Part shown: positions 38,201-41,200 of the stretch, piece by piece
Position numbering within the stretch: position 1 is the first letter of the stretch
Layout of the letters: every line of letters begins with the position of its first letter
Source: an uncultured Nitrososphaerota archaeon
Lineage (GTDB): Archaea; Thermoproteota; Nitrososphaeria; Nitrososphaerales; Nitrosopumilaceae
Length of the DNA stretch: 64,000 bases
Direction of reading: 5' to 3'
Assembly: GCA_963824385.1 (NCBI GenBank)
Contig: CAWGPD010000002.1
Location: 64,001 to 128,000, forward strand
Position numbers: made by a program

Positions 38201-41200
38201 TTCACATGTCGCAAATTCTTATATCTTGGTAAAATAGGATAATATCACAAAATGGAAATTCTAGATTATCAAACCAAGAAAAATTTTGAGATTGTAATAC
38301 AAGAGTCATTTTAAAAAATAGTGATCAACAATGACAAAGATAAAAAAACAAAGTCCAAGTCTATCAGTCTTTCAGACTTTTAAGACAAAGAACAAGGAGT
38401 TTACAGGTGAAGCGATGCGACAGCGAGGAATAATCATTCATCTTGCGGCTGAGACTTTACCAACAAGAAAGACACGTACTGCAATTGCACACAAGCTTGC
38501 TGAAATAAACGGAACAACATGGCAAAATATCTACTCTGGAATTTTTAGAGATTTGGACGAAATTCTTCTTCCTTTGGAATTAGTAGAAGAAGCTGGGAGA
38601 CTACCAATAAAGCGCGGCCCAAAAGCGCTCCAAGAACAGGGAGTTCCATATTACCAACTAACTGACAGCGGTTTGCTTGTTGCAGCTTCTGTATCAGAGA
38701 CAGACAAGGAAAGAACTCAAATTATGAATAAATTTCTTGAAAAAGATTCTAACATTAGGGAGAAGGATCTGAAGAATGCAATTATTACATTACTTGACAT
38801 TGCGCCAAATTTTATTTTGTTAGTATTAAGAAGATATGTAGAGTCATACAGTGATGGAAAGATCGATAAACTTGTTCCATTCAACACGGACCACATCAAA
38901 AAGGCCTTTGATGATACATTAAATGCTCAAAGAGAGCTCTTGGAAGGATTTGTGTCGTTATCCAATCATGATAAAGAGCCAATCATAAATTTCCTCAAGA
39001 AAGTAGGCTAGTCTCTCAATAATAATTAAAATCCCTTTCCAAAAGAGCTTGATAATGTTGATAATGTCATCTAAAGCCGCTTGTGGCAACTCAAGTCGTT
39101 AGATGACCAGTATGACAGATGAACTAATTGACTATGTGGTACACTTGATAGATTCTAAGAAAGGAGATATTGGAAGACTCAACTATATGCTAGAGACATT
39201 ACAAGATGGTAAATCACTTTATAATTCTGATAAAAAATATCTTGATTCACTGATTGCAACATACATGGGCTCCTCGAAGAAAAATGGAGAGCAAAAATCT
39301 GTTGAAGAACTCAAAGTAGAGATTGTAAGAGTAAAAAAGAGACTAGAAAAATTTGAGAAACGTGGATACAAGAAACCTGTTGGAAGAAAAGCTGGATTTT
39401 TCTTTGTTACGTGTTTTTTTGGATGGCATGCCATCATTACACTACTTGGCAGAGTATCTCTGATCAACATACAGAATATCAATCCATATCTCCTACCACT
39501 GTATTATTTAGAAAAGGTAATTCCAGGACAATATCTGAACTACGTCTATCAACTCAATCTAACCATACCAAAGATTGTAGAACTTGCATGGATAGCAATG
39601 ATGTTTACTTGGATAATACTTGGTTTTGTCTATTTAGGAAAGTTCATTCGTTCAAGATACAATCCTAATCGTTAGGAATTAATTTTTATTTAAAATCAAA
39701 ATCTTTGGAGTAGCTGTCTCCAGCAAGGGGTGTATGTGTTGAATAATATGTAGTTCCGTTAATTCTAATCTGTGCCTTACCGCTTTGAAGTGCTGACCAA
39801 ATCTGCGGATTATTTCCATCATTGATTAGTTGTGCCTGATTTGTAATTATCTCAGAGTTGTGCTCTGTAAGAGGCAAGTATGTTGAGTTATCTGATGCTC
39901 CTTCATATTTTTCTCCATACTGTCCGTGTCCAATCGAAACACCGTTTACATAAATATCATAGCTTAACATTTCAATAATCAAAGTATCGTCATTTGGATT
40001 TGTCAGATTAAATTTAGTCTCTATTGTTGCAGCCCTGTTTGTTACTGACAATACAGATGAGCCATTGTATTGCATATCAAGTGGTTTTACTTGGGTTAAT
40101 ACCGATGTTAATGCAGATGGGGTATTTCCATTATTAGACATCATATTCTTAAGACCTGAGCCTGAAAGAACAACAACTAAACCAAGTATAGCAACTAAAA
40201 CTCCTATAGCAACATAAACTAAAATTTTCTTCTCCATGAATATTTTACTATTTGTTCAATTCTTAAATGTTGAGTTGAAAACGCTTATAGTAAAAGTTTC
40301 AAAAGAAAATCTATGCAATATCATCAAGCAATAAGAATAGGTCAGGAAAGATCAAGAAAATCACAGATGACTCTATTCTCACATGCAGGATTTGCCATGC
40401 TTACACTTACTGTAAAAAAATCTCAAGGAATATTTGTTCCTGTGGGAGAAAAAGAACTTGTGGCCATTATTGAAAAACCACAAGAAGGCTGGCTTGTGGT
40501 AATAGTTGATGAAGAAGGATATGCCAAGTCACAATCTAAAGTTCTTAAAGAGGATGAAGCAAAAGAAATTTTGAAAAAAGCTACTTCTGCAGGAATTCCA
40601 CAATATGATGGACAGATTAGACTAGTGTAATTTCAGTGCCCTCTGGGCTTCCTTTGAATGCCTTTTCTAATGTTTTTATGTCTGCTTTGAGTATCCGTGT
40701 CTTTAGCTTTGAACGCTCAATCACTTTTAGTGCTACAATATCCATTAGGTCATATCCTCCTGCAATAGAATCCTGATGAACAAGCATAGAACGTAGTTTC
40801 TTTATCGGTATTTTTTTAAATTTAGTTGCATTCTTGTTTTTATTTGGATCAGAATCATATACACCATCAACATCTGTTGCATTCAAAAATATGCCTGCTC
40901 TTACCTTTTCTGCAATAAGTGCAGCAGTAGCATTTGTGCTCTGTCCAGGATGAAGACCTCCTGTGACAACAATCAATCCTGTATCCGCAGCATCTGCAAC
41001 TTCTTTTAGATTAATTGGAGGATGAGGATAAGCTTTTTCTTGTAATGCATAGATCAAAAGTTTTGCGTTAAGTCTTGAAACCTCGATTCCAAGCTCATCA
41101 AGTGTTGATTCATCTGCTCCAGAGGATCTGGCGTGTGAGATGTAGTGTCTTGCAATTTTTCCTCCTCCTGCAATTATGATTGGCTGACAGATTTTACTTA

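Follow-up and report, generated by a model that had tools for sequence, protein, structure and literature searches.

The window analysed here is a stretch of 64,000 nucleotides from the genome of an uncultured member of the Nitrosopumilaceae that belongs to the Nitrosotalea-type genus of this family. At 38331-39011 on the forward strand it contains an intact ORF of 226 codons, the P0001 gene, which encodes a winged-helix protein restricted to ammonia-oxidizing archaea (AOA). Upstream of this gene, a putative BRE/TATA element is located on the same strand at 38212-38226 (with a TATA-like hexamer from 38219, assigned by consensus only), followed by an operator-like palindrome at 38235-38249. A rhodanese-domain gene (37277-38062, reverse strand) is oriented head-to-head with the P0001 gene. 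Beyond it lies the ATP synthase operon (28544-37171, reverse strand), of which subunit c was identified by Pfam and the other subunits were recognised by eye.

The first-pass annotation had listed the 226-aa product as unannotated, which could be confirmed. No Pfam or NCBIfam family was found for P0001 at the cut-off, none of 51 aligned members of its family has a meaningful Pfam match, and a profile search of solved structures with the P0001 family retrieved no relative. The nearest named relatives are Nitrosotalea records with 72-96% identity, and the public label of the relatives is 'hypothetical protein', save for a few automatic labels. Searching 1.84 billion representative sequences, for which no taxonomy is given, with the P0001 profile resulted in 153 matches at E 0.001. 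The Atlas clusters shown for P0001 are 95-100% archaeal, with Nitrososphaerota as the most frequent group. For the orthologue NVIE_027940, the available part of PMC10030591 gives three detected peptides and a steady transcript (log2 TPM 7.2 with and without copper limitation), and the family is therefore regarded as expressed.

The structure model of P0001 (built from 51 sequences, pLDDT 90.9) consists of a three-helix bundle followed by a beta-hairpin wing, and of a helical C-terminal domain, as had been described before. The winged-helix domain comprises residues 9-120 approximately (38355-38690, forward strand), with helices at residues 26-40, 49-60 and 64-79 and strands at 85-91 and 105-110, and structural matches are confined to residues 9-127. 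Among the 50 structure matches listed, those named by title are winged-helix-type chains, with Z between 7.5 and 9.1. The best of them is 3elk_B, the PadR-like protein TA0346 (Z 9.1, rmsd 3.2, 89 aligned residues, 16% identity), which is below the Z of 11.2 quoted earlier. Within one Z unit of this match, MecI (8.6), Fur (8.6), histone H5 (8.5) and TFE-alpha (8.2) were found. None of the 51 members matched the PadR profile at E 0.1 or the MarR profiles, and a Foldseek comparison with MarR proteins gave a best E of 0.04 at a query TM-score of 0.29 and an rmsd of about 12. As far as the model goes, the winged-helix superfamily of P0001 is established; its family is not settled, since PadR, MecI, Fur, histone H5 and TFE-alpha tie, and the former label 'PadR/MarR-like' is unsupported.

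The predicted recognition helix (residues 64-79, 38520-38567, forward strand) is the most conserved segment of the protein, with a mean column conservation of 0.92. Its consensus WxNIYSGIFRDlDEiL is at least 90% conserved at 13 of 16 columns in 45 orthologues, in line with the conserved helix reported in the first-pass annotation. The wing with its long conserved loop (residues 85-111, 38583-38663, forward strand) reaches at least 90% at 16/27 columns. The remaining part of the protein is the all-helical C-terminal domain (residues 112-226, 38664-39008, forward strand), which is weakly conserved (6/106 columns at 90%, residues 121-226). Folded alone, this domain is again all helical with a pLDDT of 91.3. 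Foldseek found nothing similar to it at E 0.001, and the best Z of 6.1 is no clear structural match, a result from which no function and no new fold can be concluded. The role of the C-terminal domain is presumably dimerisation or sensing, and nothing in its weak conservation points to a fixed ligand pocket. The conservation of helix and wing, but not of the C-terminal domain, would fit a DNA-reading surface as the constrained part of the protein.

The distribution of the gene was analysed in 201 genomes of the order, which were searched with P0001, with its profile and with the amoA family. In total, 104 of 114 amoA genomes possess the P0001 gene, as do two amoA-negative assemblies that belong to an amoA family. 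It is found in 0/85 genomes of the twelve amoA-negative families, so the claimed restriction to AOA holds, and the single-protein search of a phylum sample found it in 0/257 genomes outside the window's family. The claim that it is present in every AOA could not be maintained: all eight genomes of genus g147 as well as G351 and G360 are without it, even by profile. Next to the usual neighbour, five g147 genomes show no remnant, and neither does G360, where the syntenic place is empty; in G351 the usual neighbour itself was not found. The NrpR domain (PF01995) was detected in 0/114 amoA genomes, in agreement with the lack of NrpR hits noted earlier, and in 1/201 genomes overall, with two methanogen controls found by the same search.

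The names Amt1 and Amt2 are not used consistently, Amt2 being the high-affinity type in the accessible text of PMC7490402 and amt1 in that of 10.1101/2023.08.04.551995 and PMC13674081. For this reason, the term 'long Amt' is used here; direct measurements of Amt affinities have not been made according to the excerpted text of PMC10432482. In 8/8 genomes of g147, the genus without a P0001 gene, a single short Amt is encoded and the long Amt is missing. Genus g135 keeps P0001 and has no long Amt either (8/9 genomes with short Amt only, 1/9 with none listed).

For the gene order at the locus, the window's genus was set aside and the other 47 genomes of its family were used. The P0001 gene is head-to-head with the long amt in 45 of them, which confirms the divergent arrangement reported for most Nitrosopumilaceae. 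Of the remaining two, one is cut by a contig end at which the start of amt is still seen, and the other, G076, is not head-to-head. Among 57 named loci, five are head-to-head with the long amt and 52, all Nitrosotalea-type, are not. The close relatives L054, L055 and L108 show the order ATP synthase, rhodanese, amt, regulator, and the rhodanese gene faces the P0001 gene in the window because the intervening amt of these relatives is missing. The ATP synthase operon also adjoins the P0001 gene in f1, f50 and f55, and in f61 the gene lies near the same kinase/HD cluster. The first-pass annotation had assumed that the gene moved beside the ATP synthase operon. Comparison of the gene orders indicates the reverse, since the P0001 gene occupies the same place in f50, f55 and the three close relatives: in the window's lineage it is amt that was lost from the locus, and the ATP synthase neighbourhood of the regulator is ancestral. 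A long Amt of another subtype is encoded near the amo genes in the window's genome, where the long-amt promoter is at G000:C3:95760-95850.

In f50, f55 and f61, an amt gene is adjacent to the main-copy P0001 gene in 0/17 loci. Three genomes (G372, G403 and G411) contain two diverged P0001 paralogues that flank an extra long amt, one of them divergent and one downstream; these paralogues (about 30% identity) fall into one clade with full support. Named records of such paralogues are NVIE_022090 and NVIE_022120 of Nitrososphaera viennensis, and the gene table in the available part of PMC7785015 places amt2 (NVIE_022110) between them.

The palindrome was scored with a site matrix trained on 20 distinct sites from spacers outside the window's genus. 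All four bases were seen at the centre position, which is thus free, and the consensus TGWTASTATCA given in the first-pass annotation was corrected to TGATAnTAWCA. The variant reported upstream of the P0001 gene stood up to scoring: its core (38237-38247) has one mismatch to TGATAnTATCA and reaches 17.0 bits, a score attained by 3 of 1,677,260 positions of the window's genome with the matrix trained without this genus. This core begins 18 nt after the first base of the TATA-like hexamer. In 86 of 87 family loci, training loci included, the distance to the first TATA base of the regulator is 18-19 nt. Among the held-out spacers, 14/16 score at least 9.7 bits, one of these 14 (L286) being a duplicate of a training locus. 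Behind the regulator TATA, the palindrome is kept in 52/52 Nitrosotalea-type loci after the departure of amt. From the general geometry of archaeal promoters, a site right behind the TATA box and just before the expected start site implies self-repression. Outside the family, one of 13 main-copy regulator promoters scored above 8 bits (L103) and none of four further ones did (1/17 in total), so that autorepression via this site may be specific to the family.

At the long-amt promoters, the shared palindrome of the head-to-head spacers lies at -97 from the amt start codon. Long-amt promoters located far from the regulator carry a half-site of at least 9 bits in 13/16 cases (with 5 of the 22 usable promoters of the window's genus taken in), compared with 10/89 control promoters from these lineages and with 9% of 1788 promoters in the window's genome; as the genomes are related, such counts overstate independence. 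Five loci from genomes flagged as unpublished were left out, and none of the claims depends on them. A second held-out set, unanchored and scored at the same threshold, gave weaker results (10/25 in f61, 6/9 in f55 and 1/2 in f50). The motif is short and AT-rich. In the window's genus, the half-site appears as a sharp footprint beside a variable stretch.

Only the offset of -98 +/-2 had been fixed beforehand by the training set; all other offsets were chosen after seeing the data, and their counts are descriptive. At -98 +/-2, a half-site of at least 5 bits is present in 8/9 promoters of f55, 13/17 of g161 and 2/3 of the paralogue-flanked promoters, against a background of 3.5%, and in 0/8 of g163, 0/2 of f50 and 0/4 of the other f61 promoters. 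The offset -125 is used by 8/8 promoters of g163 and 2/2 of f50, and -152 is additionally found in some of g161. Promoters of the other Amt subtype have a site at about -72 in 21 of 22 cases in the window's genus and in 6/8 cases elsewhere, and a weak further site is present at -45 in the Nitrosotalea-type amt promoter. Taken together, the offsets fit a lattice with a spacing of about 27 nt before the long amt, which is matched by 0/4 of the other f61 promoters; two of these have a site at -128. The strong amt sites are found 26-80 nt ahead of the TATA box, and the amt start region is not covered by any of them. The site is tied to long-amt promoters in each of the four amoA families tested, including cases in which the regulator lies elsewhere.

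Among further promoters, those of PII genes contain a half-site of at least 9 bits in 10/30 cases, two of them exactly at -98. In the window's genome, one 40-nt element, near-identical to that of amt, is common to the PII gene and a Cas4-like gene divergent from it; it may be a duplicated promoter and would then not be independent. At the same threshold, half-sites were found before glnA (1/27), amoA (0/18), amoX (1/18), SSS transporters (1/28), amoB (5/13) and amoC (3/13), and no common site was found before ureA across 30 loci. Short amt promoters, with 3/10 sites unanchored and 1/20 on the lattice at 7 bits, are apparently for the most part not targets. Before amoB and short amt, a second conserved palindrome of 9 bp with the same TGWT half-site was identified.

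A global nitrogen regulon is unsupported, as the site is hardly present at glnA, amoA, amoX, ureA and the urea transporters. The regulon seen here consists of the long amt, some PII genes and the regulator itself and is thus not a global equivalent of that of NrpR. A plain genome scan resulted in 96 matches of at least 10.5 bits, 81 of them within ORFs, so the motif alone cannot define a regulon. Two candidates were rejected. The top site of the window's genome (G000:C4:464623, 18.2 bits) falls within the last part of a coding gene, and relatives show it eroded at silent positions, which identifies it as a coding coincidence. The half-sites before the blue-copper genes (window 19111-20431) are not kept in 9/9 related promoters.

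According to the available sections of 10.1101/2023.08.04.551995, amt and glnB transcripts respond to the nitrogen source and those of amoA, gdh and gs do not, which is the same split as that of the motif. The urea transporter and urease genes respond as well, yet are without the site, and this counts against the regulon reading. In the same source, high-affinity amt transcripts of N. piranensis drop more than 7-fold after ammonia addition, and changes in cellular ammonia affinity are tied to the transcription of high-affinity amt.

The presence of the site was further compared with that of the protein. The loci L108, L284 and L285 have an altered recognition helix and no site (0/4 promoters, including that of the second long amt in the L108 genome). 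G351 and G360, which are without the P0001 gene, have no lattice site at their long-amt promoters, and in g147 lattice sites are found at 0/5 short amt promoters. These cases represent at most five lineages, and the counts are not tree-aware. A counter-case is also seen in g147, where amoX and amoB promoters reach motif-like scores of about 10 bits and ureA has a half-site in spite of the missing regulator. A further counter-case is g135, with regulator and without long Amt, although its short amt and one PII promoter carry half-sites off the lattice. On the whole, comparison across these genomes indicates that the conserved site at nitrogen-uptake promoters co-varies with P0001.

The proposal of the first-pass annotation, a candidate for a nitrogen regulator with a link to the long amt, is supported in a narrowed form by the amt sites in four families, the 10/30 PII promoters and the loss of the site where the recognition helix is changed or the gene is missing. 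P0001 is probably a switch for the main ammonium transporter gene of AOA. We consider it likely that P0001 is a dimeric winged-helix factor acting on this site, that it controls the long amt and some PII genes and that, in the window's family at least, it also acts as its own repressor. As a dimer, it would read TGATAnTAWCA with one winged helix per half-site. Before the long amt, one to three full or half sites would be occupied on the lattice of about 27 nt (at about -45, -72, -98, -125 and -152); the same type of site would be bound before some PII genes, and one site behind its own TATA box. At its own promoter, bound P0001 would block polymerase loading, a repression that would keep its level constant. 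Both the P0001 gene and amt would be served by a single shared site in most Nitrosopumilaceae. The activity of P0001 would probably be set post-translationally by nitrogen status, through PII or a metabolite (2-oxoglutarate, glutamine) acting on the C-terminal domain or the wing loop. PII, 2-oxoglutarate and glutamine are the obvious signal candidates by analogy with known systems.

With respect to the sign of regulation at amt, the chances that P0001 activates the gene under low ammonium are about even; activation is favoured by the position of the strong sites, which precede the TATA box and do not overlap it. Repression or looping at amt is a possible mode of action to which we give clearly less than even chances. 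Slightly more doubtful is the specific explanation that the same protein and site, following a logic like that of NrpR, repress the long amt and PII genes under ammonium excess, with the upstream site array wrapping or looping the DNA and the weak site abutting the BRE/TATA in the Nitrosotalea-type promoter. This explanation differs from the preferred one in sign. The weak -45 site does touch the TATA box in this promoter, and the three genomes that keep a long amt after site loss and helix change are easier to understand if the loss results in constitutive expression. The more than 7-fold fall of amt in N. piranensis is compatible with either sign. Archaeal repressors, however, usually overlap the BRE/TATA or the start site, and strong sites placed 26-80 nt upstream of the TATA box leave the amt start region uncovered.

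It is improbable that the palindrome is a real amt element read by another factor (e.g., an Lrp/AsnC protein or a specialised TFB), with P0001 as a neighbour that has a different job. Such a reader would fit the absence of the site from the promoter of the P0001 gene in other families, and the 9-bp palindrome with the TGWT half-site before amoB and short amt makes at least one other factor of related specificity likely. AOA also carry 4 to 11 TFB copies according to the accessible part of PMC7554672. Against another reader, the site stayed behind the regulator TATA in the 52/52 Nitrosotalea-type loci after amt had left, and it was lost exactly where the recognition helix of P0001 changed or the gene is absent. 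Lower still is the probability that P0001 regulates energy or housekeeping genes (ATP synthase operon, nucleotide kinases, Cas4-like gene) or is a chromatin-type protein, and that its link to amt is a by-product of synteny. The non-nitrogen neighbourhood formed by these genes is indeed stable, the ATP synthase operon being adjacent in f1, f50 and f55 and the kinase/HD cluster near in f61. Furthermore, the Cas4-like gene is head-to-head in L102 and L104, its homologue in the window's genome shares the amt-type promoter element, and histone H5, Z-alpha and TFE-alpha are as good fold matches as PadR. But in a comparison that did not take in the ATP synthase promoters as a class, the sites track the amt promoter and not the neighbourhood in the three families with amt far from the P0001 gene, the paralogues arose beside amt, and in g147 the loss of P0001 accompanies that of the long Amt.

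The preferred reading, a self-repressing factor that controls the long amt, rests on comparative evidence throughout, and the regulon seen is narrow. A broader version of it, to which we assign somewhat less than an even chance, is that P0001 is an ammonium-sensing factor that arose with archaeal ammonia oxidation. It would represent a new winged-helix family with an unmatched C-terminal domain, activate high-affinity Amt and PII genes from the 27-nt lattice and thereby tune the ammonia affinity of the whole cell. It would have been dropped or rewired where the long transporter or its control was given up, and in some soil lineages would have been duplicated to give a heterodimeric pair dedicated to the extra transporter.

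No literature on the P0001 protein or the palindrome was found in a search whose coverage excluded most subscription papers, and no such factor is named in the available parts of PMC7554672, PMC5767755 and 10.1101/175141. In the accessible text of PMC10432482 and 10.1101/2023.08.04.551995, PII proteins are named and no transcription factor is; how AOA sense ammonia and regulate its uptake versus its oxidation is given as an open question in the former, a review from 2023. The finding offers a protein, a candidate operator, predicted targets and non-targets as well as natural variants expected to have lost binding. The question of regulation thus becomes testable without AOA genetics, requiring short DNA probes and a small, soluble protein, and this would offer a first way into the adjustment of ammonium uptake in these archaea of global importance.

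Among known systems, NrpR of methanogens combines a winged helix with NRD domains and regulates amt and PII genes via a short palindrome. P0001 resembles it as an archaeal winged-helix candidate for the control of amt and PII via a short palindrome, but has no NRD domain (PF01995), an all-helical C-terminal domain and a different palindrome. NrpR sites are located at the start site, whereas those assigned to P0001 lie upstream of the TATA box, and a site is present in just 1/27 glnA promoters. TnrA and GlnR of Bacillus, AmtR of Corynebacterium and GlnR of actinobacteria belong to the MerR, TetR and OmpR families and are dedicated regulators of the amt-glnK type, with PII or glutamine synthetase as a possible signal partner. 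The proposed role of P0001 is alike, but the folds are unrelated, P0001 has no Pfam or NCBIfam match and the regulon seen is much narrower. With PadR and MarR proteins, P0001 shares the winged-helix topology followed by helical elements and a palindromic site, but matches neither profile. BarR and Ss-LrpB of Sulfolobales are divergently encoded Lrp-type regulators that repress themselves and activate their neighbour from regularly spaced boxes. The head-to-head layout and the regular multiple boxes are similar for P0001, for which self-repression and activation of the neighbour are likewise proposed; in contrast to them, it has no Lrp/AsnC ligand domain and its C-terminal domain is all helical. 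By analogy, P0001 would work like the known amt-glnK regulators and yet belongs to none of the families tested.

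Besides the 11-bp site TGATAnTAWCA at the regulator and long-amt promoters, a distinct palindrome of 9 bp, TGWTWAWCA, was identified, frequently in tandem at a spacing of 11-14 nt. It occurs in amoB promoters (loci L193-L203), about 85-120 nt upstream of the gene, in the promoters of short amt genes (L258-L261, L274, L153, L154) and in L325. Exact matches precede amoB in 7 of 8 promoters from Nitrosopumilaceae and in 1 of 2 from the AOA family f50, against a background of 1.7%. In G360, a genome without the regulator, the long amt carries the 9-bp palindrome in place of the 11-bp site. 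TGWTWAWCA probably serves as operator for some factor other than P0001. The amoB gene of the genome studied here is broken across two reading frames in the assembly (G000:C3:98871-99513), probably due to a sequencing error.

Paralogues of the regulator were found in L090, L091 and L092, where an additional long amt is located between two of them. These flanking proteins differ in their recognition helices and have a shortened C-domain, and a heterodimer of the two is possible. The same clade contains four further such proteins among the representatives.

Three tandem exported proteins with PEFG tails are encoded at window 19111-21173 (-), of which two are near-identical, of the blue-copper type and preceded by duplicated promoters. 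Conservation of the half-sites before these genes was sought in relatives and not found. The neighboring metal ABC transporter (window 21391-24526), labeled by eye, is faced by a small NikR-like gene, likewise labeled by eye, and its binding-protein gene seems to be split over two frames (window 23052-23949).

A 249-aa Cas4-like protein, labeled by eye from its cysteine pattern and without a match in a Pfam search, is encoded at G000:C3:93366-94115 (L377:1953-2699). In this genome a 40-nt promoter element is common to this gene and amt. The gene was found again near long amt in L146 and L155, and shows 39% identity to the gene located head-to-head with the regulator in L102.

A 53-aa hydrophobic ORF (L110:1211-1372 (-), corresponding to G000:C3 ~95544-95705) is divergent from long amt. 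No match resulted from a Pfam search; its Atlas cluster has 62 members, and comparable small ORFs are located close to long amt in L145, L151 and L336. By analogy to Methanosarcina, which reportedly has a small Amt modulator, the ORF could encode such a protein.

The ATP synthase operon (window 28544-37171, (-)) is unlike those of f50, f55 (another AOA family) and most Nitrosopumilaceae loci in gene order and sequence. It includes subunits in a single 523-codon frame (window 35185-36756, (-)), whose counterparts in L106 are two separate genes of 184 and 355 aa; this frame represents either a fusion or an assembly error. Replacement by a V-type ATP synthase operon is reported for acid-soil AOA, and the differing operon is in line with such a replacement.
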